48,687 nt of DNA. Source: Candidatus Dormiibacterota bacterium. GTDB lineage: Bacteria > Chloroflexota > Dormibacteria > Aeolococcales > Aeolococcaceae. The notes under the pieces were generated by a model, which worked only from the letters and a program-made list of their open reading frames with translations, was not told the DNA's origin and did not search any database. The first letter of the stretch is position 1. Every line of letters begins with the position of its first letter. The stretch spans positions 1 through 48,687 of the forward strand of contig DATDHG010000047.1 of assembly GCA_036521675.1 (NCBI GenBank). Direction: 5' to 3'. The position numbers and the translations under genes are program-made. This document shows positions 5,957-34,013 of this stretch, one piece after another.

Positions 5957-6875
5957 GCCGCAGCCGCGCTGTCTCGCGGTCGAGGAGGTCGGGCCGGGCG
6001 TCGCGCAGCAGGGGCGTGGCGAGCCGGGCCCGGCGCACCGCCCCGCGTTCGAGGCGGTTCCAGACCAGGGCCTCGTCCGACCCGGCCGGCTCGTGCAGCG
6101 TCTCACCGTCGGGACCCAACACACGCGAGCCGCCCCAGAACCCCACGCCGTCCTCGAAGCCGACGCGGTTGCAGTAGACCACGTACGCGGTCGTGAGCTG
6201 CGCATACGTCCTGGTCATCGCGTCGTAGGAGCGCGCTGTGCCAAGTCCCGCGCCGTCGCGCACGCCGCGTCCCGGAGAAGCGCTGGGAACGATCAGCACC
6301 TCCATGCCCTGACGGGCGAGCAGCGCGATCGCCCCGAGGTGCCAGATGTCCTCGCAGATGAGCATCCCGGCCTGCCAGGGGCGCGCCAGGCCGGCCGCGG
6401 GCGGCGTGAGCTCCAGGGTGCGCAGCCGCTCGCCGGCGGCCAGGTACCGCTGTTCGTCGAACAGCCCATAGGTGGGCAGGAACACCTTGGCGTGCAGAGC
6501 GGCCACCCGCCCGCGGCTCAGATGGACTGCGGCATTGAGGAAGCGGGCGTCACCGGTCTCCAGCACACACCCGACCACCGCGTCGACCTCGGTGCACGCG
6601 GCCGCCAGGGTGGCGAGCTCGGGACCGTCGAGGACGACGGCCACGTCGGGCACCAGGTCGCGCAGGAAGTAGCCGCAGAGGCTCATCTCCGGGAAGACGA
6701 CCAGGTGCGCGCCGCCGCGCGAGGCGTCCTCCAGGATGCCCAGATGGGTTTCGAGGTTGGCGCTGACGTCCCCCAGTCGCGGGGCGATCTGCGCGCACAC
6801 CGCAACAAAGCCGTCCGGGGCACTCGGGGTGAGCTGCGCGCGGCCGGCGCTGGGCAGGTCGCCGGGAAGGGTCAT
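5934..6875 (-). CDS. carbon-nitrogen hydrolase (nitrilase-superfamily), probable glutaminase partner of NadE
   Basis: ORF 5934..6875. The Glu-Lys-Cys triad contexts are [22 protein letters not shown] and MLICEDIWH. The ATG overlaps the dinG stop (ATGA). Confidence 0.85.
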
Positions 6876-9820: not shown

Positions 9821-10347
9821 GGCTCCCCGTAGAGCACCTCAACGTCGGCGCGATGGGGCAGGGTACGGCCCTTCGGCAGGACGTCCTCCGTGCCCCAGAC
9901 CGCCGCGCCCACCACGGGCGCCCCCGAGCGCAGGGCGAGGAAGCCGACTCCCGGATGCGCGCGCTGCAGGGCGGTGGCCTCGGCGCGCGTCCCCTCGGGG
10001 TACATCACCAGCACGTGGCCCTCGGCCAGGCAGCGCAGGCTGTACCTCAGGGCGGCGCGGTCAGCGCTCTGCCGGATCACGGGAAAGGCGTTCCAGCCCA
10101 CGAGGAGGAAGCGGGCGAAGCGCGTCCGGAATACCTCGGCCTTGGCCATGGAGAAGACGTCGGTGCGCGGGATGAGCGATCCCACCAGGGGTGGATCGAT
10201 GGTGGCGACGTGATTGCCGACCACGATCACCGGCCCCGTCAAGGGGACGTTGGCCAGGTTGCGGACGTGCAGGCGGCGGCCGAGCACGATGAGCGTGAGC
10301 AGGCGCATCAGCGCGCGTTCGGCGGGATATCGCCAATGTGGTCTCAA
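9691..10347 (-). CDS. plsC: 1-acyl-sn-glycerol-3-phosphate acyltransferase
   Basis: ORF 9691..10347. Motifs are the HX4D box GNHVATIDP and MYPEGTRA. The start TTG overlaps the cmk stop (TTGA). Confidence 0.85.
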   Translation of the reverse strand: MRPHWRYPAERALMRLLTLIVLGRRLHVRNLANVPLTGPVIVVGNHVATIDPPLVGSLIPRTDVFSMAKAEVFRTRFARFLLVGWNAFPVIRQSADRAALRYSLRCLAEGHVLVMYPEGTRAEATALQRAHPGVGFLALRSGAPVVGAAVWGTEDVLPKGRTLPHRADVEVLYGEPCPVQRHHPDGRRVTSQEAADEIMARVASLLPERYRGVYPSVC

Positions 10348-20347: not shown

Positions 20348-20802
20348 GCGCTGGGCTCCTCCTGCTCGGCGGCGATGAGCCGCGTCACCGCCTCGAGCGC
20401 GAGAGCGTAGCCGTACACCCCCAGCCCGGTGACCACCCCCCGCGCCCCGGCGCCCGTGCGCGAGCGCGCTCGGAAGGGCTCGCGCGCATGGATGTTGCTG
20501 ATGTGGACCTCGACCACCGGCCCCGGAAAGGCGCGCATGGCGTCGAGCAGCGCGATGCTGGTGTGACTGAGGGCGCCCGGGTTGACGACCACCCCCTGGG
20601 CACGGCCCGCCTCCTCCTCGAGCAGGTCGAGCAGCCGGCCCTCGTGGTTGCTCTGTTCACAGCGCAGCTCGACGCCGAGCTCGTTGGCGCGGGCGAGCAG
20701 GGTTCGTTCCACGTCGGCCAGGGAGGCGGTCCCATAGATGTCCGGCTCCCGCCTGCCCAGGCTGCCGAGGTTGGGGCCGTTGAGCACCAGGACACGCGTC
20801 AT
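20344..20802 (-). CDS. aroQ: type II 3-dehydroquinate dehydratase
   Basis: ORF 20344..20802. Motifs are VLNGPNLGSLGRREPDIYG, QSNHEG and NPGALSHTS. Confidence 0.93.
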   Translation of the reverse strand: MTRVLVLNGPNLGSLGRREPDIYGTASLADVERTLLARANELGVELRCEQSNHEGRLLDLLEEEAGRAQGVVVNPGALSHTSIALLDAMRAFPGPVVEVHISNIHAREPFRARSRTGAGARGVVTGLGVYGYALALEAVTRLIAAEQEEPSA

Positions 20803-22481
20803 GGCCCCAGGACCTCGCCGACGACGCTGCGCACGACCTCGTCGGCCAGCACGTGCCCCGGGGTGGCGGCGCCGCGGCGCTCCAGCAGCACCCAGCGGAC
20901 GGCGCCCTCCCTTGCCTTCTTGTCACCATGGGTGCGCTCGAGCACAGCCTCCGGGTCGATGCCCGCGACCTCCCCCAACCCGCAGCGACGCAGGCGCCCG
21001 TCCTGCCACTGGATGTCGGAGTTCGGGCAGCCTCTGGCCACAACGCTCAGCCTCCCGGCCACCCGCATGCCCACCGCGACGGCCTCGCCGTGGAGCAGGC
21101 GCTCGAAGCCGGCGACCGCCTCCAGGGCGTGCCCGACAGTGTGCCCGTAGTTGAGGATGGCGCGCCGCCCCGCGTCGCGCTCGTCCTCCCCCACCACCGC
21201 GGCCTTGAGGTTGCAGCAGCTCTGCACCACCGCCGCGAGCGCGGCCGGATCGCGGGCCATCAGTGCATCGAGCCGGTCCTCCAGAAGGGCCCGCAGCGCG
21301 TCGTCGTCGAGGACCATGGCGTACTTGACGATCTCCGCGAAGGCCGCCCGATGGGCTCGCTCCCCGAGGGTGCGGAGCACGTCGAGGTCGCACACCACCG
21401 CGCGCGGCTGCCAGAAGGCGCCGGCGAGGTTCTTGCCACGGGGCAGGTTGACCCCGGTCTTGCCGCCGACGGCGCTGTCCACCATCGCCATCAGGGTGGT
21501 GGGCACGTGCACCACGGCGATGCCGCGCAGGTAGGTGGCCGCGGCGAACCCGGCGACGTCGCCCACGGTGCCGCCGCCGACCGCGACCACGCAGTCGCCC
21601 CGCTCCAGGCGCAGGCGGGCCAGCTCGGTGACCAGCCGGCCGGCGCGGGCCCAGGTCTTGAGCCGTTCGCCGCCGCGCAAAGCCACGATGCGGCCGTAGC
21701 GACCCGTGCCGCGCACGCCGGCCAGGACCCGGCGCCCCGTGCCCAGCACGGCGCGGTCGGTGACCACCGCGACGCGCCGGCTCTCCGGGGGCAGCAGCCC
21801 GGCGAGGTCGGCGATGCATCCGGCCCCGATCAGCACGGGGTAGGACCGCTCCCCGAGCTCGACTCGCACGCCTTCCCCCGCGCCGGGGTCGGGTGGCGCC
21901 GCGGGGTCGCCGTCGGGCGGCAGGCGCACTCCTGCCACGGCGTCCTCGACCCGGTCGGCGATGTCCTCCACGTCGCCCCCGCCCACATCGACGCGCAGCT
22001 GGGCGACCTTGGCGTAGAGCGGCTGCCGGGCGGCGCGCAAGGCGGCGAGGCGGGACGGTGGGTCATCGGCGAGCAGCGGACGGTCACCGGCTGCGCCCAG
22101 GCGGGCGAGCAGCTCGCCGTCGCTGCCGTCCAGCCACACCACCGTGCACGCCGCGGCGAGGCGACGGCGCGCCGCTGCGGTACCGACGATGCCGCCGCCA
22201 CAGGCGACCACCACGGGGCCCTCCGCGGCCAGCGCTTCCTCGAGCGCCTCCACCTCGCGGCGGCGGAAGCCCGCCTCACCCTCGGTCGCGAACACCGCGC
22301 TCAGCGACTGCCCGCTGCGCGCCGCGACGGTCGCGTCGAGGTCTGCGAGCCGCCACCCCCGGCGCTGCGCCAGGGTCCGGGCCACGCTCGACTTGCCGCT
22401 CCCGGGCAGGCCGACCAGGGCGATGCGTTGCGCCGCGCGAGTGTCCACCGGCGTGGTCGTCATCACCTGCGCCAGGCTCAC
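20799..22481 (-). CDS. bifunctional shikimate kinase / 3-dehydroquinate synthase (AroK-AroB fusion)
   Basis: ORF 20799..22481. The N-terminal part is AroK, with P-loop LVGLPGSGKSSVAR and LDATV. The C-terminal part is AroB, with GGGTVGDVAGFAAATYLRGIAVVHVPTTLMAMVDSAVGGKTGVNL and NYGHTVGHALE. Confidence 0.9.
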   Translation of the reverse strand: MSLAQVMTTTPVDTRAAQRIALVGLPGSGKSSVARTLAQRRGWRLADLDATVAARSGQSLSAVFATEGEAGFRRREVEALEEALAAEGPVVVACGGGIVGTAAARRRLAAACTVVWLDGSDGELLARLGAAGDRPLLADDPPSRLAALRAARQPLYAKVAQLRVDVGGGDVEDIADRVEDAVAGVRLPPDGDPAAPPDPGAGEGVRVELGERSYPVLIGAGCIADLAGLLPPESRRVAVVTDRAVLGTGRRVLAGVRGTGRYGRIVALRGGERLKTWARAGRLVTELARLRLERGDCVVAVGGGTVGDVAGFAAATYLRGIAVVHVPTTLMAMVDSAVGGKTGVNLPRGKNLAGAFWQPRAVVCDLDVLRTLGERAHRAAFAEIVKYAMVLDDDALRALLEDRLDALMARDPAALAAVVQSCCNLKAAVVGEDERDAGRRAILNYGHTVGHALEAVAGFERLLHGEAVAVGMRVAGRLSVVARGCPNSDIQWQDGRLRRCGLGEVAGIDPEAVLERTHGDKKAREGAVRWVLLERRGAATPGHVLADEVVRSVVGEVLGP

Positions 22482-23107
22482 CCGGTCAACCCGCCGGACG
22501 GGGGGTTGTAGCCCGGCGGCGGCGGGGTGTACCCCGGGCCCGCGCCGGGCGGGGCGTAGCCGGCGGGAGGGGCCCCCGGAGGCCCGGCGACCGGCGCCCA
22601 GGCGACCGTCGCCTGGCCGGTCCGCATCCCCTGAGCCTGGAGCTGGAGGGCGTCGCTGAACCCGACCGGGTCGAGGATGTGGCGCAGCATGTCGGCTCCG
22701 TCCCGCCCCGCGGACTCGATCTCGACGGTGCCCGCCTGGAACACACGGGCCAGCAGCCCCTGGGTGACGCGAACGTCCTGGACGCGGTCCAGCGCGATGG
22801 ACTTGGTGAAACGAGAGAGCACCCCGCGACTCACCACCACCCGACGGTCGGTGAGCGTGAAGGTGGTGTAGCGCCAGCGCAGGTAGCGCAGCGTGAGCAC
22901 GGCGGCCACGAAGAGCACCGCGACGAGCGCGATCACCTCCTTGGGGAGATTCAGGCTGTGGCCGCCGACGTCGCCCGGCGACACCGCGACGATCGACCCC
23001 GCCACCCCCAGGACGAGCAGAGAAACGGCCAGGGGCGGCAGGAACACGTACCAGTGCTGCCGCGCGGTGCGGATCGCCGTCTCACCCGCCAGCAGGGCCC
23101 TCGCCAT
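22478..23107 (-). CDS. bacterial PH-domain (bPH_2/YdbS-like) membrane protein with Pro/Gly/Tyr-rich tail
   Basis: This is part of ORF 22478..23194. The ATG at 23107 is preceded by GGGAGGACGAG. Two predicted TM helices are followed by YTTFTLTDRRVVVSRGVLSRFTKSIALDRVQDVRVTQGLLARVFQAGTVEIESAG. The C-terminus is PPGAPPAGYAPPGAGPGYTPPPPGYNPP. Confidence 0.7.
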   Translation of the reverse strand: MARALLAGETAIRTARQHWYVFLPPLAVSLLVLGVAGSIVAVSPGDVGGHSLNLPKEVIALVAVLFVAAVLTLRYLRWRYTTFTLTDRRVVVSRGVLSRFTKSIALDRVQDVRVTQGLLARVFQAGTVEIESAGRDGADMLRHILDPVGFSDALQLQAQGMRTGQATVAWAPVAGPPGAPPAGYAPPGAGPGYTPPPPGYNPPSGGLTG

Positions 23108-23145: not shown

Positions 23146-23910
23146 CTAGGGACCGGCCGGACCGTGATACATGATGAGCGCCGCGCCGGCGCACAGGAAC
23201 GGCCCATAGGGTATCGGGTCACGAAGGCCCCGAACTCGGGTGGCCAGCAGGATTAGGGCCACCACCCCCGCGCTCAGCGCCGCGGCGATGAGGGCGTAGA
23301 CCGCCCCCAGATGGTCGAGGTCGGTGCCGATCCCCGTGACGGCGCCCACGATCGCGCCCAGCTTGGCGTCTCCCATGCCCAGCACGCTGCCCCCGAGGAG
23401 CAGGCTCTGCAGCATGAAGAAGAGGTAGACGAGCCCGGCCCCGACGACGGCGTTGCGCAGCGTCAACCCCGGCGTCAAGGGGGCCAGCCCGATGGCCACC
23501 GGGATGGCCACGTAGGTGACGCGGTTGAGGATGAGCCGGTGCTTGAGATCGAAGATCGTGATATGCAGAAACACGCTCACCCACAGGAGGTGGATGCCGA
23601 GCTCCAGGGAGATGCCGTCGTGGGCCGCAAAGGCGGCGAAGCCGAGCGCGCCCAGCGCCGGCGCGACGACCCGCTCCAGCCACGTGAAGCCATAGCGCTC
23701 GCCCCGCCACTCGACACCGGGCGGGACGGGGCCGCCCTCCTCCGTGGTGCGGGCGGCCTGGCGGCGCTGGTCCTCGAGGAACTCGTCGCGCTCGGCGATC
23801 TCCTCGGCCTCGAGCCGCTCCACGCGCTCGAAGTAGACCCCGAGGGCTCCGCAGCCGTAGCCCACCGCCGCCCCCGCAAGCGCGGCGGCCCCGGTGAGAA
23901 GGGCGCTCAC
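23146..23910 (-). CDS. A24-family prepilin peptidase-like aspartic protease
   Basis: ORF 23146..23910. The protein is polytopic. The two catalytic Asp contexts are TIFDLKHRLILN and VLGMGDAKLGAIVG. No CxxC zinc/methyltransferase N-domain is visible. The stop codon is TAG. Confidence 0.8.
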   Translation of the reverse strand: MSALLTGAAALAGAAVGYGCGALGVYFERVERLEAEEIAERDEFLEDQRRQAARTTEEGGPVPPGVEWRGERYGFTWLERVVAPALGALGFAAFAAHDGISLELGIHLLWVSVFLHITIFDLKHRLILNRVTYVAIPVAIGLAPLTPGLTLRNAVVGAGLVYLFFMLQSLLLGGSVLGMGDAKLGAIVGAVTGIGTDLDHLGAVYALIAAALSAGVVALILLATRVRGLRDPIPYGPFLCAGAALIMYHGPAGP

Positions 23911-24758: not shown

Positions 24759-25856
24759 CTAAGCCGCGCAGGGCGCCCCCACGTAGGTCCTGACGTTCTG
24801 CGCATGCTCGGCCGCGGTCACGGCGTAGTGATTGTGGCCACATCCGTCTGAAACGTAGTAGAGGTAGGCGCTCGGGGTGGGCTGGGCGGCGGCGGTGATC
24901 GCCGCCACGCCGGGGTTGGAGATCGGCGTGGGGGGGAGCCCGGGGTGGAGGTAGGTGTTGTAGGGCGTGTCCTGCTTGAACTCGGCGGCGCTGGGCTCGC
25001 CCGAGCTGTGGCCGAGGCCGTAGGTCACGGTGGCGTCGACCTCCAGGAGCATCCCTGCCGCCAGGCGGTTGTCGATGACCGAGGCCACCAGCCCGCGGTC
25101 CTCGGGGAAACGCGCTTCGCGCTCGACGATCGAGGCGACGGTCACCACCTGGTAGTCGGTCTGCGAGGCGGGCATCTGGGCGAGCAGCGGAGCTGCCTTG
25201 GCGGCGAAGTCGTCCAGCTGCATCTGCACGATGTCGTGCGCGGTCGCGCCGACAGTGACCGAGTAGGTGTCCGGGAAAAGGAAGCCCTCGAGCCCGGCTC
25301 CGGGCGGCCGGTGCGCCAGGAAGGGGGCGGTGAACCGTCCCTTGGTGACCTCGTCCATGTACTGCTGGGCGGTCACCCCCAGCCCCGCCTTGCCGACCAC
25401 GTCCGCCATCTGCCTGGCGGTGAGACCCTCGGGGAAGGTGAGCTGGGCCATACGCGCCTCGGGAGTGGCCTGCAGGAACCCGACGATCCTCGACGCCGAC
25501 ATGCCGCTGTCGAGCGTGTAGCTGCCCGGTTGGACGTCGTTGAGGCCGCGATAGCGCTCATAGAGCGAGAACCAGAACTTCGAACGGATCAACCCGTCGG
25601 CGGCGAGCTGGTCGTTGACGTCGCCGACCGATTCCCCCGGCCTGACGATCAGTGTGACGGAGTGGCTGTTGTCGGGGGCAGGCGCATCGAGCTGATGCCG
25701 CCCATAGACGAACAGTCCAGCGCCCGCCGCCACCATGAGCGCCGCGACAAGCACGAACGCCAGCCCCAGGCTGCAACCGCGCCGGCTGCGCGGCCGCGGC
25801 TCGGCGGCCGGTCTCTCCAGCTCGGCGACGGGGCCACCCCTGGGCTCCCAGCTCAT
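24759..25856 (-). CDS. mltG: endolytic murein transglycosylase MltG (YceG family)
   Basis: This is the C-terminal 366 codons of ORF 24759..26309. It has an N-terminal TM helix (LGLAFVLVAALMVAAGAGLFV), followed by TFPEGLTARQ, ASIVEREA and TPYNTYLHPGLPPTPISNPG. The ATG at 25856 overlaps the ruvX stop (ATGA). Confidence 0.9.
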   Translation of the reverse strand: MSWEPRGGPVAELERPAAEPRPRSRRGCSLGLAFVLVAALMVAAGAGLFVYGRHQLDAPAPDNSHSVTLIVRPGESVGDVNDQLAADGLIRSKFWFSLYERYRGLNDVQPGSYTLDSGMSASRIVGFLQATPEARMAQLTFPEGLTARQMADVVGKAGLGVTAQQYMDEVTKGRFTAPFLAHRPPGAGLEGFLFPDTYSVTVGATAHDIVQMQLDDFAAKAAPLLAQMPASQTDYQVVTVASIVEREARFPEDRGLVASVIDNRLAAGMLLEVDATVTYGLGHSSGEPSAAEFKQDTPYNTYLHPGLPPTPISNPGVAAITAAAQPTPSAYLYYVSDGCGHNHYAVTAAEHAQNVRTYVGAPCAA

Positions 25857-26287
25857 CGCTGCGCCCCGCCGCGCCGGGCGTCCAGCCACGCCTGCAGCAC
25901 CACCGCTGCGGCCACGGCGTCGATACGCTCCCGGCGCCGGCGGCGGCGCACGCCCGCAGCCAGCAGGGCGCGCTCCGCCTCGACGCTGCTGAGCCGCTCG
26001 TCCCAGAGCTCGACCGGCAGACCGGTCTGCTCCCTGGCCTCCTCGGCCAGAGCGCGGGCCGCCGCCGCCGCCGTCCCCTCGACGCCGTCCATCCGCAGCG
26101 GCAGGCCCACGACGATCCCCACCGCGCCGCGCTGTCGCGCCTCGTCGCGCAGCCGCTCCCAGAGGCGCCCCCCATGGCGCCGCTCGAGGACGGCGACCGG
26201 GCTGGCGAGCGTGCCCGTGGGATCCGAGGCCGCCAGGCCCACGCGCACGGTCCCAGCGTCGAGCCCGAGCACCACTCCGCTCAGCAC
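25853..26287 (-). CDS. ruvX: Holliday junction resolvase-like RuvX (YqgF)
   Basis: ORF 25853..26287. Motifs are VLGLDAGTVRVGLAASD, IVVGLPLRMDG and DERLSSVEAE. The GTG start overlaps the upstream stop by 7 nt (GTGCTGA). Confidence 0.9.
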   Translation of the reverse strand: MLSGVVLGLDAGTVRVGLAASDPTGTLASPVAVLERRHGGRLWERLRDEARQRGAVGIVVGLPLRMDGVEGTAAAAARALAEEAREQTGLPVELWDERLSSVEAERALLAAGVRRRRRRERIDAVAAAVVLQAWLDARRGGAQR

Positions 26288-27990
26288 GCCTGGTTGGGCG
26301 AGCGGACACAGATGCTCACCGTGATGCGCGACGAGAAGAAGGGCAGCACGAAGAAGGGGATCGCCTGGGAGATCTGCACCCCCTGGACCGCGGCCCCGTA
26401 CTGGTCCGTGACCGCCTTGGTCACCGCGCTCTTGGTCTTCCCGGTGAAGCTGCTCTTCAGCTTCTCGGTGTCCACCTGGGGGGTGGCATAGCCGCTGCCG
26501 CTGATGCTGAAGACCACGATGCCGTCGTCACCCGCCTGCTGCACCACCGGCTGACCTATGACCTTGCTCTTGTCGTCGAGAACTGCGCCACTCTGCGCCT
26601 GGCTCACGTCGGCGCGCAGCCTGTCCTCGAGCCGGCCCTTGACGTCGGCGGGGTCGTACATGGCGGCGGTGCCGTGGACGGTGACGGTCACCTGCTGGTC
26701 GGGCGGAGCCTGATCGCCGGGGTTGGGCGACGGCGGGCTGGACTCGGTGGTGATGGTCAGCCCCGAGTGGGTGGGGTCGATGGCGAAGACCTTGCCCGGG
26801 ACCTTCGCCTGCATCGCCTGTTTGACCTGGTCCGACAGCGTCTTGGTGGTGGTGTCGAGGCTCTGCTTGTACGCGGCGACGTCGGGGGGGCCGGCGACGG
26901 TGAGGGTCTGGGCGTCGACGCCCCCGCTGGCGGCGCCCGGGTTGGTGACGGCGAAGTCGCTGGGGGCGCAGGCTGGGGCGCCGCCGCCCGGATAGTTGCT
27001 GGGGTTGCAGCCGTTGATCCCGGCGTCGACCTGGTTGATGGCGCCGGCGCCGGCGTTGCCCGCCGCCCCCGCCGTCGAAGCGGTGACCGCGATGACCTTG
27101 CTGGCGGGGCCGAACTGGCCGTTGCTCGACGCGGGCACGAAGACCCCGCTGTCACCGGGGCAGGCAGCGTCGTTCGGCGGACTTGCCGTGGCCGCCCAGC
27201 TGAGCGATCCGCTCTGCGCGAGCACGGTTCCCTTGACGATGTGCAGGCAGAAGGGACTGCTGAACCGGGTGCTGAACTGCACGGCCGACTGGCTTGCGGC
27301 GGCGGCGATGGTCTTGGTGCCGGTGGCCTTGAAATCGAACGTGCCGGTGGCGTCGGAGCTGGTGACCACCGTGAGGACGCGGTCGGCCTGCGTCGCCACG
27401 TTCGGGTCGGGGGTGCCCTGGATGGTCAGGTTGTCCTCCTTGACCGGGGTCGCCTGGAGCACGATGGTCACCTTGGCCGTGGGAGCCACCAGGAAGAGCA
27501 CCAGGACGCCGATCAGGAACAGCGCGGCGGCGGCCACGTACACGCCGGGTCCGCGCGCCCCCGCCCCCCGCCCGTGGGGGCGGGGCGGGGCCGCTCGGGG
27601 CGTGACCGGGGGCGGCGCCGCACCGCTTCCAGGCGCCGAGGCCGGCGCCGCGCCGGCGAGGGCCACGGCCCCCGCCGCCACCCCGGCGCCCACGCCGGCC
27701 GCGGCGGCCACGGCCTCGACGCCACGCTCATACGCGGCAACCGAGGCGAAGACCGGCAGCCCGTTGTCGACGGCCAGCTGCTGCGTGCGCGCGTCGCCGC
27801 TGACGATGGCGGCCGACTTCATGAACGAGCGGGCGTACTGCTGGAGCAGCCGCAGGTTGAGCTCGCTCTGCAGCACTCGCGACCCGTTGGGCAGCACGAA
27901 GACCAGGTCGCCATCGGTCCCGGTGCCGCGCACCCGTTCGACGAGGTCGGTGATCTCCTCGCCCGGTTCGACGTAGATCATCTGCGCCAT
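26281..27990 (-). CDS. uncharacterised 570-aa bitopic membrane protein (small cytoplasmic N-domain, Ala/Gly/Pro linker, one TM helix, large Cys-containing extracytoplasmic region)
   Basis: This is part of ORF 26281..28209. The ATG at 27990 (MAQMIYVEPGEEITDLVERV...) lies 5 nt after the FtsA-like stop. The TM helix is VYVAAAALFLIGVLVLFLVAP. The region downstream of it is about 400 aa and rich in Thr/Ser/Gly/Ala, with several Cys. I recognised no family by eye. GC3 is high throughout. Confidence 0.7.
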   Translation of the reverse strand: MAQMIYVEPGEEITDLVERVRGTGTDGDLVFVLPNGSRVLQSELNLRLLQQYARSFMKSAAIVSGDARTQQLAVDNGLPVFASVAAYERGVEAVAAAAGVGAGVAAGAVALAGAAPASAPGSGAAPPPVTPRAAPPRPHGRGAGARGPGVYVAAAALFLIGVLVLFLVAPTAKVTIVLQATPVKEDNLTIQGTPDPNVATQADRVLTVVTSSDATGTFDFKATGTKTIAAAASQSAVQFSTRFSSPFCLHIVKGTVLAQSGSLSWAATASPPNDAACPGDSGVFVPASSNGQFGPASKVIAVTASTAGAAGNAGAGAINQVDAGINGCNPSNYPGGGAPACAPSDFAVTNPGAASGGVDAQTLTVAGPPDVAAYKQSLDTTTKTLSDQVKQAMQAKVPGKVFAIDPTHSGLTITTESSPPSPNPGDQAPPDQQVTVTVHGTAAMYDPADVKGRLEDRLRADVSQAQSGAVLDDKSKVIGQPVVQQAGDDGIVVFSISGSGYATPQVDTEKLKSSFTGKTKSAVTKAVTDQYGAAVQGVQISQAIPFFVLPFFSSRITVSICVRSPNQAC

Positions 27991-27995
27991 CTGGG

Positions 27996-29261
27996 TCACA
28001 CCTTCATCGCCTTCATGATCCGGCGCATCATGTCCCCGAGGGGCTGCGCCTGCTCGTCGTCGAGGGAGATGGCGTGGTGGGCCAGCGCCATCGGGGTGAC
28101 GTCCTGGCAGCCCGTCAGCAGCCCGGTGGAGTCGTGGAGGCCCCGGATGTCGGCGGGGGTCAGCGTGCGCACCGAAGGATGACGGCCGAAGGGCAGGTAC
28201 TCGGTCCACTCCAGCAGGTCGAGCTGCTGGCTGATCTCCGGCAGGGCGGCTCCGCCCCCGCCCAGATAGATGCTCGGCGGGAGCATCTCGCCCTGGGCCA
28301 TCTCCTCGAGCGCGAGCGCCACGCCCTGGGCGAGCACCTCGGCGTTGGGGGTGACGGCGTTGTGGGCCAGCGCGGCCTGATCGGCCGGCAGCCGGCCCTC
28401 CCCGTGGGCGATCTTGAACTGCTCCGCCTCCTCCAGGGTCATCTCGAGATCTGCGGCGACGCGCCGCGTGAAGGCCCGGCCGCCGAGCGCGAACATGCGC
28501 GTGGCCTCGATCCCCCCGTTGCGCACGAGGGCGATGTCGGTCGTGCCGCCGCCCACGTCGACGAGGATCCCGCCGAATTCGTACACCTCGTCGCTGGCGC
28601 AGGCGCGGGCCATGGCGTAGGGCTCGGCGACTGTGGCCAGCAGCTCAAGGTCGAGTTGCTGCGCGATAGTCTGCAGCGCCCCCACGTGGGTCATCGGCGC
28701 GAAGGTGTTGAAGACCGAGACGTCCAGAACCCGACCCTGGAAGTCGAGGGGATTGCTCACGGCGTAGCCGTCGACGTGAACGCTGGTGATGGCCGAGTGC
28801 ACCAGCTTGACGTTGACCTCCGACACGCCCAGCTCCTGGGACATCTGCCGCACCGCCTCGCGGAGCGCGCGCCTCTGCACCACCTGCAGGCTCTGCGCCA
28901 CCTCGGCCTGGGTGATGCGCGACTGGGGCTGCTGACGCGGGACTGAGACGCTCGTGCTGAACCCCTTGATCTGCTCGCCGGCGATCCCGATCACCGCCTG
29001 GCCGGGGACCATGTGGCACATGTCCTCGGCCTCGGTCAGAGCCCGGTCACAGTTGTCGATCACCGCCTGGATGTCGGCGACCGCCCCGGCCTGCATGTCG
29101 CTGAGCGCCTGGCGCACCCGGCCGGCCCCGATGACGATCCCCTGGTCGCCCTCACGCTTGACCACGAGCGCCTTGACGACCTCGGTGCCGATGTCGATGA
29201 CCGTGTAGTGGCTGTGGAACTCCTCGCGGCGGCGTAGCAGGGAGAACGAACGGCGGGCCAT
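27996..29261 (-). CDS. FtsA-like actin-fold ATPase (SHS2-domain type) with C-terminal amphipathic helix
   Basis: ORF 27996..29261. Motifs are phosphate-1 VIDIGTEVVKALV, an FtsA-style inserted domain (KLVHSAITSVHVDGYAVSNPLDFQGRVLDVSVFNTF), LVDVGGGTTDIALVRNG, ALGGRAFT and YLGGGGAALPE. The C-terminus is DMMRRIMKAMKV. The ATG shares 1 nt with the alaS stop (TGATG). Confidence 0.8.
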   Translation of the reverse strand: MARRSFSLLRRREEFHSHYTVIDIGTEVVKALVVKREGDQGIVIGAGRVRQALSDMQAGAVADIQAVIDNCDRALTEAEDMCHMVPGQAVIGIAGEQIKGFSTSVSVPRQQPQSRITQAEVAQSLQVVQRRALREAVRQMSQELGVSEVNVKLVHSAITSVHVDGYAVSNPLDFQGRVLDVSVFNTFAPMTHVGALQTIAQQLDLELLATVAEPYAMARACASDEVYEFGGILVDVGGGTTDIALVRNGGIEATRMFALGGRAFTRRVAADLEMTLEEAEQFKIAHGEGRLPADQAALAHNAVTPNAEVLAQGVALALEEMAQGEMLPPSIYLGGGGAALPEISQQLDLLEWTEYLPFGRHPSVRTLTPADIRGLHDSTGLLTGCQDVTPMALAHHAISLDDEQAQPLGDMMRRIMKAMKV

Positions 29262-31885
29262 CAGGCCTTGCCGCCCGTGGGGATGTCGCCGTTGAGCAGG
29301 GCGCGCACGGCCGCGAGCGCGGCCTGGCGCTTGGCCGGGTCCGCGATGCCTCCCTGGGCCTTGTCGGGCCGGCCGCCTCCCCGGCCCCCGGCCACGCCCT
29401 GGACGGCGTCGAGCACGCGCCTGGCGTCGAGGCCCCGCGCCCGCGCGTTGCCGCCCGCCTTGGCCAGAACGTAGTCTGCGCCGATCACCACGACGAGGCC
29501 GTCGCCCCCCAGCCGCTCGAACAGGGCGTCGCCCGCGTCGAGCACGCCCTGGCGGTCGAGGTCGACGACGCTGCCCGCGAACTGGAGGTCGCCCACGCTC
29601 ACGACGTCGCCGCCCAGCCCGCCGCCGGTGGCGGCCAGGCGGCGGGCCTCGGCGACATCCTTGTGGAGCTGGCGCACCTGCTGCTGCAGGGCGGCGACGC
29701 GGTCGACAAGCTCCGCGGGCGCTGCGCGGAGCTGCTGGGCGGCGCCGCGGACGCGGGCCTCGGCCTCCTCCCAGTGGGCCTCGGCGGCCTCGCCGACGAC
29801 CATCTCGATGCGCCGGACGCCCTGGCCGATGCTGGACTCGCCGGTGATGATCACCGCCCCCAGGTCGCCGGTGCGCTCCACGTGGGTGCCTCCGCAGAAC
29901 TCCTTGCTGAAGTCACCGAAGCTGACCACGCGGACCTGCTCCGGGTAACGCTCGCCGGCCATGGTGACCGCCCCGGTCCGGCGCGCCTCGTCAAGGGGGA
30001 GAACGGCCACCGAGCGCCGAAGGTTGCGGCGCACCTCATCGTTCACCAGGCGCTCGACGCGGCGCACCTCCGCGTCCCCGAGCGCCCGCGGGTAGCTGAA
30101 GTCGAAGGTGGTGTGGTCCCACTCCACCAGGGAGCCGCGCTGCACCACCGCGTCGCCGAGCTCCTGGCGCAGGGCCTGGTTCAGCAGGTGGGTGGCGCTG
30201 TGGTGGCGCGCGGTCTGGGCGCGGCGCCGGGCGTCGACGCGGGCCAGCACCGCGGTCCCCGCCAGCAACCAGGGGGGGGCGGCGGCGAGACTGAGCACGC
30301 GGGTCTCGGTGCCGGCGAGGAAGCGGCAGTCGGTCACGGCCACCGCCTCGCCATCATGGATGAGGACACCCTTGTCCCCAACCTGGCCGCCCGCCTCCGC
30401 ATAGAACGGCGACGGCTCGATCACCACTTCGCTTCCGGCGGTTCCCACCCAGACCAGCTCGGCTTCGCATTCCAGGGTCTCGTACCCGACGAAGGTGGTG
30501 GGCGGCAGCGCCGGGCCTGCGGCGAATCCGACCCGCGCCACGCTGCGCCGGCTGCGCTCCCGCTGGGCCTCCATGGCGGCCTCGAAGCCCCGGCGATCGA
30601 CCTCGACGCCGCGCTCCCTGGCCAACTCGATGGTCAACTCGATGGGAAAGCCGAAGGTGTCGTGCAGGCGAAAGGCCTCGGCGCCCCCGAGCTGAGCGTC
30701 ACCCGCGCCGAGGAGCGCGTCGAGCCGCTCGGCGCCGTCGGCCAGCGTTCGAGCGAATGCCGCCTCTTCGGTGACCAGGACATTCTCGATGGTGGGCCGG
30801 TGCTCCACGAGCTCCGGGTAGACGGCTCCCATGACCCTCACCAAGTCGCCCACGCCGGCGCCCAGCCCACCCTCGAGTCCAACCCGCCGGCCGTGGATGG
30901 CAGCCCGCCTGACCACCCGCCGGAGCACGTACCCCCGCGACTCGTTGCCGGGCAGCACGCCGTCGGCGATGAGGAAGCAGGCCGCCCGGAGGTGGTCGGC
31001 GAGCACGTTGAAGGAGGCTCGGCGGCGTGGACTCTCGTCGGCCTGGGGGGCGCGTGCCTCGACGCCTGCGACGATGTCGAGGAACAGATCCGTTTGGTAG
31101 ACGCTACGCACACCCTGCAGCACCGCACTCATCCGCTCGAGGCCCATGCCGGTGTCGACCGTGGGCCGCGGGAGCGCCGTGCGGCTGCCGTCCTCAGCCT
31201 GGTCGAACTCCATGAACACGAGGTTCCAGATCTCCGTCCAGCGGTCCCCGCCACACTCGTCCTGCGGCGTGCAGCCTGGGCGGCCGCAAGAGCAGGGCGG
31301 GCCGTGGTCCCAATAGATCTCGCTGTCGTAGCCGCAGGGGCCGGTGGGACCCGCCTGCCACCAGTTGTCCTCCAGGCGGCTGATGCGCTCCCGGGGCACG
31401 CCGATACGCTCTACCCACAGCCGCTCGGCCTCGCCGTCGCCCGGATGAACGCTGGGCCACAGCCGCCCCGGATCGAGGTCGAACGGGCCGGTGAGCAGCT
31501 CCCAGGCGAGGTCGATGGCGCCCTCCTTGAAGTAGTCGCCGAACGACCAGTTGCCCAGCATCTCGAAGAAGGTGAGGTGGGAGACGTCGCCCACCTCCTG
31601 GATGTCGTCGAGCATGCCCGAGCCGCGAAAGCACTTCTGGCACGACGCCACCCGAGGCGCCGGGGCCGGCCTGGTGCCCAGGATGTAGGCCTTGAGCGGC
31701 ACCATGCCGGCCACGGTGAAGAGCACAGAGGGGTCGTCGTGGGTGAGCAGGGGCGCGCTCGGCAGTCGCAGGTGACCCCGGCTGGCGAAGAAGTCGAGAA
31801 AACGTTCCCGGATGTCTGGGCTGCGCACGTCCACCCTGGTGGTGAGATCGGTCCTGCGGGCGTGGGAGACCGCCCCCAGGCCCAT
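29261..31885 (-). CDS. alaS: alanine--tRNA ligase
   Basis: ORF 29261..31885. Motifs are DIRERFLDFFASRGH, FEMLGNWSFGDYFK, the editing-domain HSATHLL and CGGTHV. Alternative in-frame GTG starts at 31834 and 31828 would give the usual short N-terminus before DIRERF. Confidence 0.95.
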   Translation of the reverse strand: MGLGAVSHARRTDLTTRVDVRSPDIRERFLDFFASRGHLRLPSAPLLTHDDPSVLFTVAGMVPLKAYILGTRPAPAPRVASCQKCFRGSGMLDDIQEVGDVSHLTFFEMLGNWSFGDYFKEGAIDLAWELLTGPFDLDPGRLWPSVHPGDGEAERLWVERIGVPRERISRLEDNWWQAGPTGPCGYDSEIYWDHGPPCSCGRPGCTPQDECGGDRWTEIWNLVFMEFDQAEDGSRTALPRPTVDTGMGLERMSAVLQGVRSVYQTDLFLDIVAGVEARAPQADESPRRRASFNVLADHLRAACFLIADGVLPGNESRGYVLRRVVRRAAIHGRRVGLEGGLGAGVGDLVRVMGAVYPELVEHRPTIENVLVTEEAAFARTLADGAERLDALLGAGDAQLGGAEAFRLHDTFGFPIELTIELARERGVEVDRRGFEAAMEAQRERSRRSVARVGFAAGPALPPTTFVGYETLECEAELVWVGTAGSEVVIEPSPFYAEAGGQVGDKGVLIHDGEAVAVTDCRFLAGTETRVLSLAAAPPWLLAGTAVLARVDARRRAQTARHHSATHLLNQALRQELGDAVVQRGSLVEWDHTTFDFSYPRALGDAEVRRVERLVNDEVRRNLRRSVAVLPLDEARRTGAVTMAGERYPEQVRVVSFGDFSKEFCGGTHVERTGDLGAVIITGESSIGQGVRRIEMVVGEAAEAHWEEAEARVRGAAQQLRAAPAELVDRVAALQQQVRQLHKDVAEARRLAATGGGLGGDVVSVGDLQFAGSVVDLDRQGVLDAGDALFERLGGDGLVVVIGADYVLAKAGGNARARGLDARRVLDAVQGVAGGRGGGRPDKAQGGIADPAKRQAALAAVRALLNGDIPTGGKA

Positions 31886-31948: not shown

Positions 31949-32797
31949 TCAGACGGGGGGCGCCTCGCCGAACTCCCTGCGCATGTGCTCGATGGCGGCT
32001 CGCTGCAGCCGGCTCACGTGCATCTGCGAGATCCCCAACCGCTTGGCGACCTCGGTCTGTGGCAGCTGCTCGACGAACCGCAGCATCATGATCTGGCGCT
32101 CACGCGGCGTCAGATGGGCCATCACCTGGTCGATCACCTGGCGCATCTCCACCCGGTCCAGGTCGACGTCGTCACTCCCCAGCCGCTCGCCCAGCTCGCG
32201 CCCGTCGTCAGGACTGCCGGTGGGCGTGGACTCGAGGCTGAGGGTGTGCTGCGCGGGCGAGACCTCGAGGGCTGCCAGCACCTCGTCCGCAGCCAGGCCG
32301 ACGCGGTCGGCGATCTCGGCGATAGAGGGCTCGCGCCCCAGCTCGGCGCTCAGCTGCTCTCGGCTGCGCACGACGCGCAGGTAGTTCTCCTGGAGCCGGC
32401 GGGGCACGCGCACCGCCCAGGAGCGATCGCGGAAGTGGCGGCGGATCTCGCCGCTGATGGTGGGCGTGGCGAAGGTGGAGAACTCGTTCTCGAGGCTGGG
32501 GTCGAACCGCTCGATGGCCTGGATGAGCCCCAGGAAGCCGACCTGCTCGATGTCCTCGAGCGGCTCGCCGCGGTTGGCGAAGCGACGGGCGATGAAGTGG
32601 ACCAGGTCGCTGTTGAGCTCGACCAGCCGCTCCCTGACCACGGGGTCGCGGGTGGTCCGGTATTCGCGAAGCAGGCGCCGCGTCTCCTCACGCTTGGGGT
32701 CGGGCGCGGGCTTGGGGATGGTCCGCACCGCGCGTCCCCCCGGGCCTGTCCCGGAGCCCACCACGTCGGCACGCGGGCCCCGGGGGCCCGACGTCAC
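31949..32797 (-). CDS. SigB/SigF/SigG-family (group 3) RNA polymerase sigma factor
   Basis: ORF 31949..32797. Region 2 is DLVHFIARRFANRGEPLEDIEQVGFLGLIQAIERFDPSLENEFSTFATPTISGEIRRHFRD. The region 4 HTH is QTEVAKRLGISQMHVSRLQRAA. The GTG overlaps the upstream stop (GTGA). Confidence 0.9.
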   Translation of the reverse strand: MTSGPRGPRADVVGSGTGPGGRAVRTIPKPAPDPKREETRRLLREYRTTRDPVVRERLVELNSDLVHFIARRFANRGEPLEDIEQVGFLGLIQAIERFDPSLENEFSTFATPTISGEIRRHFRDRSWAVRVPRRLQENYLRVVRSREQLSAELGREPSIAEIADRVGLAADEVLAALEVSPAQHTLSLESTPTGSPDDGRELGERLGSDDVDLDRVEMRQVIDQVMAHLTPRERQIMMLRFVEQLPQTEVAKRLGISQMHVSRLQRAAIEHMRREFGEAPPV

Positions 32798-33351
32798 ACG
32801 CGGAACTTGGTGAGCCGCACCCGCAGCCCGCCGGTGCGCTCATCGACCCGGTAGCGGCAGTCGTCGACGAAGAGGCCCATCACCCGCAGGGCGAGGTCCC
32901 GATTGGCCGCGTCGCGTGCCAGCGCCTCGGCGACCTCATGGCTGGGCGGGGTGGTCGCGGGGTGGCGGCGCGCCGGCGACGGGGCCGGTTCCAGGGCGGC
33001 CCCCCGCGGGAGGTCCTCGACGCGCCCGCAGGTGCTGCGCACCTGCACCTCCAGGCGCTGGTCCTCGACGCGGAAGCCGAGTCGGATCTGCGCAGACGGC
33101 AGGGCGCCGGCGGCAGCGGCGCAGCGGATGGCGTTCTCGCAGGCCTGGGCGACGGCGATGCAGAGATCGTCCACCGCCTCGATATCAAGTCCGGCCACGT
33201 AGGCGAAGCCGGCGGCGGCCCGTTTGGCGACGAGTACGTAGGCAGGCGCGGCGGGGATGCGCAACTCCGAGGCGGTGGCCTTCACGACCTCCTGGTCATA
33301 CCCGGGCGCTGCGCTGCCGAAACCGCCGCCGAGCCCGGCGGAGCGGCTCAT
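32794..33351 (-). CDS. RsbW/SpoIIAB-like anti-sigma factor with degenerate ATP-binding motifs
   Basis: This is part of ORF 32794..33438. The ATG at 33351 overlaps the upstream stop (ATGA). The sequence ELRIPAAPAYVLVAKRAAAGFAYVAGLDIEAVDDLCIAVAQACENAI aligns by eye with RsbW [48 protein letters not shown]. The G1 and G2 glycine boxes are not recognisable. Confidence 0.7.
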   Translation of the reverse strand: MSRSAGLGGGFGSAAPGYDQEVVKATASELRIPAAPAYVLVAKRAAAGFAYVAGLDIEAVDDLCIAVAQACENAIRCAAAAGALPSAQIRLGFRVEDQRLEVQVRSTCGRVEDLPRGAALEPAPSPARRHPATTPPSHEVAEALARDAANRDLALRVMGLFVDDCRYRVDERTGGLRVRLTKFRV

Positions 33352-33638
33352 GCGGAGGCGGCTGCGGGGGTGTCGTCGAGGGTCGCGATAGGGATGGCGC
33401 CGGCCCGATCGGTGCCGTGGCCGTTGACGGGTATCCACCGGACCGCCTCGTCGGCGGGCTCGCCGTGGCCGCCGGTGGCGATGCCCTGGCCGATGGCGGT
33501 GCGCACCTCATCATCGACCTCCTCGAGGGATTCGGGGGCGGTGCGGCGCGCCCGCAGGGCGGCGGCGGCGGCGGCGGCGGCGACAGCGATCGCTCCCGCC
33601 ACGGCAGCGCGGCTCAGCAGGCGACCAGTCGAGGACAT
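33348..33638 (-). CDS. small hypothetical protein (96 aa) with N-terminal Ala-rich hydrophobic segment and acidic C-terminal half
   Basis: ORF 33348..33638. The ATG is preceded by CCGGAGGTCCCCC (GGAGG with 5-nt spacing). GC3 is high. It is the first gene of the sigma module. I recognised no family. Confidence 0.55.
   Translation of the reverse strand: MSSTGRLLSRAAVAGAIAVAAAAAAAALRARRTAPESLEEVDDEVRTAIGQGIATGGHGEPADEAVRWIPVNGHGTDRAGAIPIATLDDTPAAASA
33558..33581. repeat. (GGC)8 trinucleotide microsatellite, encoding Ala8 on the minus strand
   Basis: Eight perfect tandem GGC units are read directly at 33558-33581, inside the 96-aa ORF. Confidence 0.9.
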
Positions 33639-33731: not shown

Positions 33732-34013
33732 TCATGGTCCATGGCCGTCCCGGCCCGGTGATCCGTGCACGAGGAGCAACGCGGCCGCCTGCAGCGCGGC
33801 GACCACGGCCAGGTCGAGCACCGGGTGCAGTACGCCCACCGACACCCCGGCGAGATGCCCGGATCCGGCCACCAGCTCGCCGAGCACCACCCCGACGCAG
33901 CTGATCCCCAGCGTCCACAGGTAGGGCCCGCGCTCTGGGATCACCAGCCGGGTGACCTGGGTCGCGACGAGCGCCAGCAGGATGGCGAGAACGAGGCCGG
34001 GGCTGGCACGCAC
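33732..34013 (-). CDS. small membrane protein, possibly GlsB/YeaQ/YmgE (transglycosylase-associated) family
   Basis: ORF 33732..34013 (GTG start). GC3 is high. The protein is 93 aa with three hydrophobic Gly-rich helices: LVLAILLALVATQVTRLVIPERGPYLWTLGISCVGVVLGELVAG... The family assignment rests on pattern resemblance only. Confidence 0.45.
   Translation of the reverse strand: MRASPGLVLAILLALVATQVTRLVIPERGPYLWTLGISCVGVVLGELVAGSGHLAGVSVGVLHPVLDLAVVAALQAAALLLVHGSPGRDGHGP

Follow-up and report, generated by a model that had tools for sequence, protein, structure and literature searches.

The closest described counterparts of the gene pair analysed here are systems that match an actin-like protein with a bitopic membrane partner: FtsA–FtsN, PilM–PilN and MreB–RodZ. 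In architecture, MreB–RodZ offers the nearest analogy: an actin-like filament is bound by an N-in bitopic partner through the folded N-domain that this protein has in the cytoplasm, and a linker, a transmembrane (TM) helix and an extracytoplasmic domain rich in beta structure follow. FtsA–FtsN joins an FtsA-type ATPase to an N-in single-pass protein that reaches from the cytoplasm to a domain outside it, while in PilM–PilN the gene of an FtsA-like ATPase lies beside that of a bitopic partner, to whose cytoplasmic N-terminus the ATPase is presumed to bind. To these must be added the phage baseplate wedge proteins (gpJ/gp47/gp6), whose modules self-associate in phage baseplates and of which TssF of the T6SS is a cellular derivative. 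The pair described here shares features with all four, and we propose, at a probability of roughly 55%, that it forms a trans-membrane cytoskeletal adaptor acting in division or envelope morphogenesis, by analogy to FtsA–FtsN, PilM–PilN and MreB–RodZ.

The 48.7-kb window, by which we mean the whole stretch of DNA analysed, carries on its minus strand the order alaS, gene 1, gene 2, ruvX, mltG. The flanking genes are assigned by Pfam: alaS (alanyl-tRNA synthetase, 29261..31885) by tRNA-synt_2c (519 bits), tRNA_SAD and DHHA1, ruvX (yqgF, 25853..26287) by RuvX PF03652 (138 bits), and mltG (YceG, 24759..25856) by YceG PF02618 (254 bits). Between alaS and ruvX, gene 1 (27996..29261), named 'cell division protein FtsA' in older annotations, encodes a 421-aa actin-like (ASKHA) ATPase of the FtsA superfamily, as placed by Pfam, TIGR01174 and a PDB profile match; gene 2 (26281..27990) encodes a 569-aa membrane protein whose bitopic, N-in character is predicted from an AF2 model and hydropathy. 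Base 29261 is common to the alaS TGA and the gene 1 ATG (TGATG). Five nucleotides, CCCAG, separate the gene 1 stop (27996-27998) from the gene 2 ATG at 27990. The stop of gene 2 (26281-26283) is part of the stretch GTGCTGA, whose GTG at 26287 starts ruvX, so that the two genes overlap by 7 nt. When TGATG, the 5-nt spacer and the 7-nt overlap were re-read, the sequence-level statements of the original prediction all held. The ruvX stop and the mltG ATG also overlap (ATGA at 25853-25856), and aroE/A24 and bPH/aroKB are further coupled gene pairs at the same locus. GC content is even throughout, at about 0.70-0.73, and no intrinsic terminator was found between 22 and 34.5 kb of the window.

In every one of the 73 Dormibacterota species loci, as far as the contig extends to the genes concerned, the order alaS, gene 1, gene 2, ruvX recurs, and Limnocylindria (Chloroflexota) share it; alaS and gene 1 overlap by 1 nt in 35 loci and by 4 nt in 17, and the spacer between genes 1 and 2 measures 2-10 nt in nearly all loci. 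Another five metagenome loci have the two genes side by side, Limnocylindria among them, with gene 2 at 26% identity there. Because 73 independent Dormibacterota species genomes share this order and these tight junctions, the pairing is not a matter of chance: the predicted insertion between alaS and ruvX is real, co-inherited and translationally coupled, and it extends, as synteny outside the source genome, to Limnocylindria. It is best explained as a vertically inherited module of two components, specific to the Dormibacteria/Dormibacterota and Limnocylindria lineages. No description of the pair was found in the searchable literature, so that its billing as uncharacterised stands. At a median identity of 70% (range 67-82% across Dormibacterota), gene 1 exceeds both AlaRS (57%) and gene 2 (34%), and it is under very strong purifying selection. 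The proposed link to MltG fared less well and is not a conserved feature: the mltG query had no tblastn match in 42 of the 73 species loci, and there ruvX and aroE, where both were found, are almost directly adjacent.

Gene 1 resembles FtsA in its ASKHA/actin fold with phosphate-1, phosphate-2 and adenosine motifs, its alignment to FtsA across 1A-1C-2A, its length of about 420 aa and its basic amphipathic C-terminal tail. The motifs DIGTE, VDVGGGTTDIA and LGGGGAALPE are all present, Pfam FtsA PF14450 scores 50.2 bits, and FtsA is the top match in both NCBIfam (TIGR01174, the FtsA equivalog: 110.9 bits, E 7e-32) and the PDB, where the family profile finds 7q6f with an E-value of 3.4e-19 over residues 17-288. 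The tail, GDMMRRIMKAMKV (27999..28037, minus strand), has a hydrophobic moment of 0.64 (rank 11 of 409 13-mers) and four basic residues, and it ends in an MKV that is invariant in 11 of 11 aligned orthologues, Limnocylindria among them. We regard it as a putative membrane-targeting sequence. Unlike in FtsA, the sequence itself is invariant beyond amphipathic character alone. Motifs, Pfam match and amphipathic C-terminus together uphold the earlier description of an FtsA-like protein with a tail of the membrane-targeting type.

Could gene 1 simply be the sole divisome FtsA of this lineage, moved out of the dcw cluster? Gene 2 would then encode a late-division protein peculiar to the lineage that binds FtsA and takes over the function of FtsN or of ZipA-type bitopic partners. 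We consider this possible but doubtful. The top matches, the FtsA-like length and tail, and the name in older annotations speak for it, as does conservation above that of AlaRS, which fits an essential protein. However, the TIGR01174 score stays below the equivalog cut-off of 175.85, Pfam finds no SHS2_FTSA (PF02491) match in gene 1, and the 2B subdomain falls short of that of FtsA by about 29 residues (100 versus ~129 between the phosphate-2 and adenosine motifs) and is not alignable, the FtsA profile alignment stopping at residue 288. The 2B region is the FtsZ-binding part of FtsA. Since this region diverges and the equivalog threshold is missed, gene 1 leans away from being a canonical divisome FtsA. 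Its location points the same way: as originally noted, it is not linked to ftsQ or ftsZ, neither of which adjoins it in the window or across the 80 related loci. As a rule, ftsA-ftsZ sit in the dcw cluster of Chloroflexota (PMC10608941), so Limnocylindria may have both gene 1 and a dcw ftsA.

The fold also brings PilM to mind, and with it the idea that the pair supplies the cytoplasmic and inner-membrane alignment component of an apparatus for pili, competence or secretion, with gene 1 as PilM, gene 2 as a PilN-like protein and a prepilin peptidase alongside. Gene 1 has a domain-level Pfam match to PilM_2 (40.9 bits, cut-off 27), its family profile reaches PDB PilM entries down to 4e-11, an actin-like protein with a bitopic partner follows PilM–PilN logic, and a Peptidase_A24 (prepilin peptidase) gene identified by Pfam lies four genes downstream in the same operon (23146-23910). 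We nevertheless judge such a role improbable. The score against TIGR01175 pilM is 42 bits, far under the cut-off of 133, and the PilM match is confined to the C-terminal half, whereas that to FtsA covers 1A-1C-2A. Gene 2 is unrelated to PilN, the pair comes without pilO, pilP, pilQ or pilin genes, and the genes for PilN, PilO, PilQ, pilin and the ATPase are absent from the window and related loci. Moreover, gene 1 has a putative membrane anchor of its own, and we know of no membrane-targeting tail in PilM. As for the peptidase, the aroE-A24 pairing is probably a synteny ancestral to Terrabacteria that is found in the absence of genes 1 and 2 as well. As for MreB, gene 1 is only weakly MreB-like in the Pfam search (20.6 bits, under the cut-off of 27), and neither mreC nor mreD is found in the neighbourhood of the pair.

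Gene 2 (AF2 model with a pLDDT of 83; 56 homologues found) gave nothing above threshold in direct Pfam and NCBIfam searches, and the original prediction could not place it in any family. This now applies to the N-domain only. Residues 1-92 (27715..27990, minus strand) are modelled as a cytoplasmic alpha/beta domain of four beta-alpha repeats (pLDDT 91), with neither a Pfam/NCBIfam family nor a significant PDB fold match (Foldseek, best E 0.059). Its profile finds at least 3,316 representatives (50% identity clusters) at E<=1e-3, and the domain is N-terminal in 150 of 150 representatives among the matches listed. Judged by these searches, the ~92-aa N-domain is a new cytoplasmic domain outside described families, a folded unit in place of the short peptide of FtsN and alpha/beta rather than helix-turn-helix as in RodZ. 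The weak top fold matches, TM1081 (TM 0.57, E 0.059), SLC26 STAS and RsbS, hint at a STAS-like anti-anti-sigma module that would tie envelope status to an RsbW-like anti-sigma/sigma pair; such anti-sigma and sigma genes lie just upstream of alaS and are syntenic in Dormibacterota, and helix 2 of the N-domain is capped at its N-terminus by a near-invariant Ser or Thr (position 42), at what we take to be the phospho-site position by STAS topology. This connection is very unlikely: no Foldseek match is significant, SpoIIAA/RsbV aligned to the N-domain profile by hhalign yields a probability of 0.04%, structural reasons often put Ser or Thr at a helix N-cap, and genes 1 and 2 persist in Limnocylindria loci, where the sigma/anti-sigma pair is missing.

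The N-domain is followed by an Ala/Gly/Pro-rich linker (residues 93-149, 27544..27714), predicted to be disordered from a pLDDT below 50 over residues 97-149 and variable in length among aligned homologues, and by a single TM helix at residues about 150-172 (27475..27543), where hydropathy peaks (Kyte-Doolittle 2.93 for the 19-mer at residue 150) and the AF2 model places the helix at 151-167. Model and hydropathy, the Arg-rich stretch before the helix and the position of all six Cys within the ectodomain point to an N-in topology. Mean pairwise identity is 62% in both N-domain and TM helix, 42% in the ectodomain and 31% in the linker; that the first two are best conserved fits a cytoplasmic and membrane interface.

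The extracytoplasmic part (residues 173-569, 26284..27474, minus strand), about 400 aa rich in Ala/Val/Ser/Thr/Gly, can be placed. Pfam Baseplate_J PF04865 is matched by 12 of the 26 members of the family (9.5e-6 at best; window protein 0.021), PHROG_6 (baseplate wedge) matches gene 2 at 4.8e-4 and a Limnocylindria relative at 2.8e-13, Foldseek retrieves the baseplates 8kea, 9euf and 9gb2 from the PDB, and of its 24 BFVD matches at <=1e-3 all named ones are baseplate or virion structural proteins. In NCBI, 'baseplate J/gp47 family protein' is already the name given to Limnocylindrales relatives and to some from Dormibacteria. Because four independent routes agree (Pfam on family members, PHROGs, Foldseek against PDB and against BFVD), the ectodomain is homologous, in sequence profile and fold, to phage baseplate wedge protein J/gp47; FtsN has a SPOR domain in its place. 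Unlike the phage proteins, it is held by an N-terminal TM helix that would expose it outside the cytoplasm, is fused to a novel cytoplasmic domain and is embedded in a housekeeping operon; gpW/gpI/TssE/TssG-type partners, sheath and tube genes are absent nearby. The homology might suggest the remnant of a decaying prophage or phage-tail-like particle, adjacent to gene 1 by accident, a notion we find scarcely credible. Apart from gene 2, no phage or tail gene occurs in the 48.7-kb window, which holds housekeeping genes only, or in related loci; gene 2 is intact and sits in the same slot in 73 species and a second class, it combines a conserved non-phage N-domain with a TM helix, no relatives appear among the 2.9 M viral contigs of IMG/VR, and locus GC is uniform. 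Phylum-wide vertical conservation effectively refutes a phage remnant. PADLOC found no match to a defence system.

As a trans-membrane adaptor, the pair would work from the cytoplasm outwards. The basic amphipathic helix at the C-terminus of the gene 1 protein would hold it on the membrane's inner face, where it presumably polymerises. The N-domain of gene 2, on its flexible linker, may dock on this actin-like protein, and the conserved TM helix would pass the connection through the membrane to the ectodomain, a domesticated baseplate-wedge (gpJ/gp47/gp6-type) module that may oligomerise and would have an organising or sensing role in the cell envelope. A cytoskeletal filament would in this way be coupled to an extracytoplasmic domain, most likely for cell division or wall morphogenesis, a process that we infer from family resemblance and neighbours only. 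Speaking against an adaptor, neither alaS nor ruvX is an envelope gene, many relatives have lost the adjacency of mltG, and adjacency and coupling in a long housekeeping super-operon do not necessarily mean functional partners. What survives of the envelope module first proposed is the conserved, coupled pair of a putatively membrane-tethered actin homolog and a bitopic partner; co-expression with MltG drops out as a conserved link.

If gene 1 should be the only FtsA of its lineage, the module would be a divisome variant, not a separate machine. Gene 2, for its part, is another instance of a cell making use of the baseplate-wedge fold.

The original prediction held that two genes, one for an FtsA-like actin-family ATPase (gene 1; 27996-29261, minus strand, 421 aa) and one for a single-pass membrane protein (gene 2; 26281-27990, minus strand, 569 aa), sit between alaS and ruvX and are tightly coupled at every junction; the ORF listing and direct reading of the sequence bear this out throughout. 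Base 29261 is common to the alaS stop and the gene 1 ATG (TGATG), CCCAG separates the gene 1 stop (27996-27998) from the gene 2 ATG at 27990, and GTGCTGA holds the gene 2 stop in a 7-nt overlap with the ruvX GTG at 26287. The true mltG start codon, an ATG at 25856, shares bases with the ruvX stop (ATGA, 25853-25856), so the coupling extends downstream of ruvX; GTGA overlaps also occur at aroE/A24 peptidase (23907-23910) and bPH_2/aroKB (22478-22481). The identities of alaS, ruvX (PF03652) and mltG (YceG) are confirmed by Pfam. Within this minus-strand region of a contig with 72% GC, everything from alaS to aroQ has the appearance of a single super-operon with translational coupling. Internal terminators or promoters that would divide it were considered and rejected: no terminator-like site was found between 22 and 34.5 kb of the window, and the sole promoter-like site lies 5' of the anti-sigma gene.

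Scanning one genome for each GTDB species gave 73 loci, practically all from Candidatus Dormibacterota MAGs, and tblastn with the window proteins as queries recovered the order sigma-alaS-gene 1-gene 2-ruvX in every sufficiently long locus. The alaS, gene 1 and gene 2 junctions are conserved across Dormibacterota: 35 loci show a 1-nt and 17 a 4-nt overlap of alaS and gene 1, the spacer between gene 1 and gene 2 measures 2-10 nt in the large majority, and gene 2 and ruvX lie -10 to +17 nt apart. The order alaS-gene 1-gene 2-ruvX-mltG also recurs in contigs from Limnocylindria, with gene 2 at only 26% identity, and in further metagenome contigs. The presumed linkage to mltG is less constant than first thought: 42 of the 73 Dormibacterota loci gave no mltG match by tblastn, and in these (L015, L020, L023-L032 and many others) aroE comes almost immediately after ruvX, at about 8150-8200. 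The alaS-ruvX-mltG linkage is thus broken in a large sub-clade, while gene 1 and gene 2 stay put.

Conservation is distributed unevenly along the locus. Measured against the window proteins, median identity across Dormibacterota is 74% for the sigma factor encoded upstream of alaS, 70% for gene 1, 57% for alanyl-tRNA synthetase, 55% for RuvX, 50% for AroE and 34% for gene 2. That an FtsA-like protein ranks above an aminoacyl-tRNA synthetase is unusual and suggests that gene 1 is heavily constrained, for example by contacts within a polymer or by a large number of partners. Loci indistinguishable from those of Dormibacterota, with gene 1 at 67-81% identity, also occur in several MAGs of the SMAG series that are labelled Saccharimonadales, Acidiferrales or Angelobacter (L020, L026, L036, L037, L048); these records are probably mislabelled or contaminated bins.

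What kind of actin homologue is gene 1? The nucleotide-binding motifs of the actin/ASKHA fold are present (DIGTE, VDVGGGTTDIA and LGGGGAALPE, all invariant across the family), and the protein passes Pfam FtsA (PF14450; 50.2 bits, cut-off 31.8) as well as, at the domain level only, PilM_2 (PF11104; 40.9 bits, cut-off 27), with weak matches to MreB, EutA and MutL. At the level of FtsA proper, it scores 110.9 bits against the equivalog model TIGR01174 (E 7e-32), under the cut-off of 175.85 and spanning model positions 3-258 of 371 only, and 46.8 against 409 for PRK09472. When a profile of 11 orthologues was searched against solved structures, the best match was FtsA (7q6f, E 3.4e-19) over residues 17-288, corresponding to subdomains 1A-1C-2A; EutJ (9e-14) and PilM (4e-11) matched in the C-terminal half only. 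Pfam SHS2_FTSA (PF02491) gave no match at E<=0.01, yet HMMER alignments to 7q6f cross 1C (query 86-190). Past residue 288 the alignment to 7q6f drops to -0.2 bits, and the phosphate-2 and adenosine motifs are about 100 residues apart, compared with about 129 in 7q6f (about 29 shorter), which together suggest that the 2B subdomain is shortened and divergent. In FtsA, 2B is the part that binds FtsZ, through the FtsZ C-terminal peptide. The C-terminus of gene 1 has been kept: its tail, GDMMRRIMKAMKV, contains four basic residues and ranks 11 of 409 by hydrophobic moment (0.64), the terminal L..MRRVMKAMKV is nearly invariant, and the final three residues are identical in all orthologues, also in Limnocylindria, where overall identity is 48%. 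By these sequence features, the tail would qualify as an FtsA-type amphipathic C-terminal helix with a putative membrane-targeting role.

The genomic setting was foreseen correctly, in that gene 1 stands apart from its classical neighbours: no ftsZ or ftsQ was found in the 48.7-kb window or in any related locus, and the window holds no second ftsA. Among the matches listed, the homologues of gene 1 are orthologues only, each with at least 59% identity; a generic database name for them is 'cell division FtsA domain-containing protein'. A PilM-type protein is disfavoured by the score against TIGR01175 (42.4 bits, cut-off 133) and by synteny, as Pfam families for PilN, PilO and secretin are missing from the window and the related loci. 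Gene 1 is thus best described, from its sequence, as an FtsA-superfamily protein with a membrane-targeting-type tail, and not as a demonstrable FtsA orthologue. The main rival holds that gene 1 is the only FtsA of this lineage, relocated from its usual position, with gene 2 as a lineage-specific divisome partner. It differs from a reading in which the two proteins form a separate adaptor pair mainly in whether a canonical ftsA-ftsZ also exists. Against the rival stand the failed TIGR01174 test, the divergent 2B subdomain and the observation that Chloroflexota generally keep ftsA-ftsZ at the dcw cluster (PMC10608941; the sole Dormibacterota/FtsA paper found, which treats the dcw genes of Dehalococcoidia). 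We consider it rather unlikely that gene 1 is the sole FtsA; the evidence leans toward, and does not prove, gene 1 being a paralogue of canonical FtsA.

Gene 2 is the more variable partner. Its AlphaFold2 model, built from a 26-sequence alignment (pLDDT 83), shows an alpha/beta domain (residues 1-92), a disordered Ala/Gly/Pro linker (97-149), a single TM helix (about 150-172) and an ectodomain of about 400 aa that is rich in beta structure and includes two long helices. An Arg-rich stretch ahead of the TM helix, together with the placement of all six Cys after it, supports an N-in, C-out topology. Mean pairwise identity within the family is 62% for the N-domain and TM helix, 42% for the ectodomain and 31% for the linker. 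Near the C-terminus of the ectodomain, residues 544-556 (26323-26361, minus strand) form a hydrophobic, Pro-containing motif, IPFFVLPFFSSRI, that shows strong conservation throughout Dormibacterota, P545, P550 and R555 hardly varying at all; its shortness and Pro content are incompatible with a TM helix. A database search returned 56 relatives, of which the named ones belong to Candidatus Dormibacteraeota or Chloroflexota.

From sequence alone gene 2 had not been placed in a family, and direct searches of Pfam, NCBIfam and PDB sequences indeed gave nothing significant; the protein could be placed only through family-level Pfam, PHROGs and a fold search. These show that the ectodomain is homologous to the phage baseplate wedge protein J/gp47. 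Pfam Baseplate_J (PF04865) matches 12 of 26 family members (best 9.5e-6) and all Limnocylindria relatives listed, and is precomputed for a few of the database relatives; gene 2 of the window alone stays below threshold (14.6 bits against 21.1, E 0.021). PHROG_6, 'baseplate wedge subunit', matches gene 2 at 4.8e-4 and a Limnocylindria relative (P0056) at 2.8e-13. Foldseek of the model against the PDB returned 8kea_d (1.5e-4), 9euf_I (1.1e-3) and 9gb2_A (probability 1.00) at the top, chains from the baseplates of cyanophage A-1(L), phi812 and phiCD508. The 24 BFVD matches at <=1e-3, where named, are all baseplate or virion structural proteins, mostly 'Baseplate J-like'. Global TM-scores of the fold matches are low (0.15-0.21) because the domains are differently oriented. 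NCBI already labels the Limnocylindrales and some Dormibacteria relatives 'baseplate J/gp47 family protein'; others are 'hypothetical protein'.

A remnant of a prophage or tailocin is disfavoured by the conserved synteny, by the absence of phage genes from the window, by uniform GC and by the lack of any relative of gene 2 among 2.9 M viral contigs (IMG/VR). Tail or baseplate genes are likewise missing nearby, both in the window and in related loci. The phage-free context and the absence from viral contigs argue for a long-domesticated cellular gene. An anti-phage defence system was rejected as well, since no PADLOC model matches either protein.

The cytoplasmic N-domain of gene 2 represents a large, undescribed domain family. 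Its profile matches at least 3,316 representatives of 50%-identity clusters at E<=1e-3 (1,353 at <=1e-10), the domain lies at or near the N-terminus in 150 of the 150 matches listed, in full-length proteins of 520-720 aa, and all named members belong to Dormibacteria/Dormibacteraeota or Limnocylindrales. A family of this size merits a Pfam entry. Its conserved residues include E12, I13, R21, R47-L49 and E88. Modelled alone, the N-domain folds into four beta-alpha repeats (pLDDT 91), and Foldseek finds no significant structural neighbour, the best being the STAS protein TM1081 (E 0.059, TM 0.57). Homology to STAS proteins is nevertheless unsupported: the fold likeness is weak, and hhalign against SpoIIAA/RsbV gives a probability of 0.04%. 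Residue 42 (27865-27867, minus strand), a nearly invariant Ser replaced by Thr in some clades, caps the N-terminus of helix 2, which we take to be the phospho-site position of the STAS topology, an equivalence that the same profile comparison does not support.

The remainder of the window consists of a block of co-directional housekeeping genes from pyrH to ksgA, comprising pyrH, uppS, cdsA, dxr, rseP, ispG, proS, relA, hisS and aspS in one part and xseAB, tlyA, nadK, recN, scpAB, cmk, dinG, nadE, metG, tatD and ksgA in the other; no tRNA and no Rfam family was found in the window. Directly upstream of alaS (31949-33507, minus strand) lie an RsbW-like anti-sigma kinase (HATPase_c_2) and a group-3-type sigma factor, the latter kept at that position across Dormibacterota (70-79% identity); the Limnocylindria loci with genes 1 and 2 are without this pair. 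Two small minus-strand ORFs between aspS and the anti-sigma gene (33348-33638, 96 aa; 33732-34013, 93 aa and very hydrophobic), with a sigma-70-like promoter match between them (33725-33698), may be the counterparts of two Pfam-negative 87-aa genes at the equivalent position (1931-2520) of L001, a related locus. Some differences concern the shikimate genes. In L001 and L004, another related locus, aroC (chorismate synthase; L001 13537-14688) sits between the bPH_2 gene and aroK-aroB; in the window it is missing from this junction (22478-22500), and tblastn finds none in 48.7 kb. Shikimate kinase and 3-dehydroquinate synthase are fused in a 560-aa ORF (20799-22481, minus strand), which shares 59% identity with its fused 552-aa counterpart in L001; in L004 the two genes are separate. 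The DinG-type helicase (6872-9838, minus strand, 980 aa) carries an N-terminal RNase_T (DnaQ-like) exonuclease domain.

Finally, we would like to place the pair into the context of known cytoskeletal systems. FtsA-FtsN, PilM-PilN and especially MreB-RodZ follow the same logic, a peripheral-membrane actin homologue with a coupled N-in bitopic protein, and this likeness favours a trans-membrane adaptor pair. By this analogy, gene 1 filaments would bind the N-domain of gene 2, and the baseplate-wedge ectodomain would have its role in the envelope, with division or wall morphogenesis as the most plausible process; we give this reading a probability of roughly 0.55. In phage baseplates, the wedge fold self-associates. 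A more speculative extension, which we regard as improbable, is a new trans-envelope cytoskeletal machine, core to Dormibacteria and Limnocylindria and separate from a canonical FtsA-FtsZ divisome, in which an inner FtsA-derived filament would be coupled through the N-domain to an outer ring or lattice of baseplate-wedge domains and could, for example, position or gate cell-wall remodelling. If true, cells would here have co-opted phage baseplate parts in a way not covered by T6SS, tailocins and eCIS, and bacterial actin biology would gain a new branch.

Systems of an actin homologue and a bitopic adaptor, to which gene 1 and gene 2 are best assigned, are already known. New in gene 2 are the undescribed cytoplasmic domain family and the membrane-anchored, extracytoplasmic use of a phage baseplate wedge domain; in our literature search, no paper tied an FtsA-like or actin-like protein to a baseplate-J protein, and neither 'FtsA paralog' nor 'FtsA domain-containing protein' appeared in any paper. 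If gene 1 and gene 2 interact, they would form a fourth such system after FtsA-FtsN, PilM-PilN and MreB-RodZ, and a baseplate protein would be seen to serve cells in a role that is neither contractile nor secretory. Among the best-conserved proteins of the locus is gene 1, which fails the definition of FtsA and is hard-wired to a baseplate-wedge membrane protein. Soil and freshwater contain abundant Dormibacterota and Limnocylindria, which are, to our knowledge, essentially uncultured; the pair, two proteins with a proposed interface, gives a tangible starting point for studying how these bacteria divide or form their envelope.
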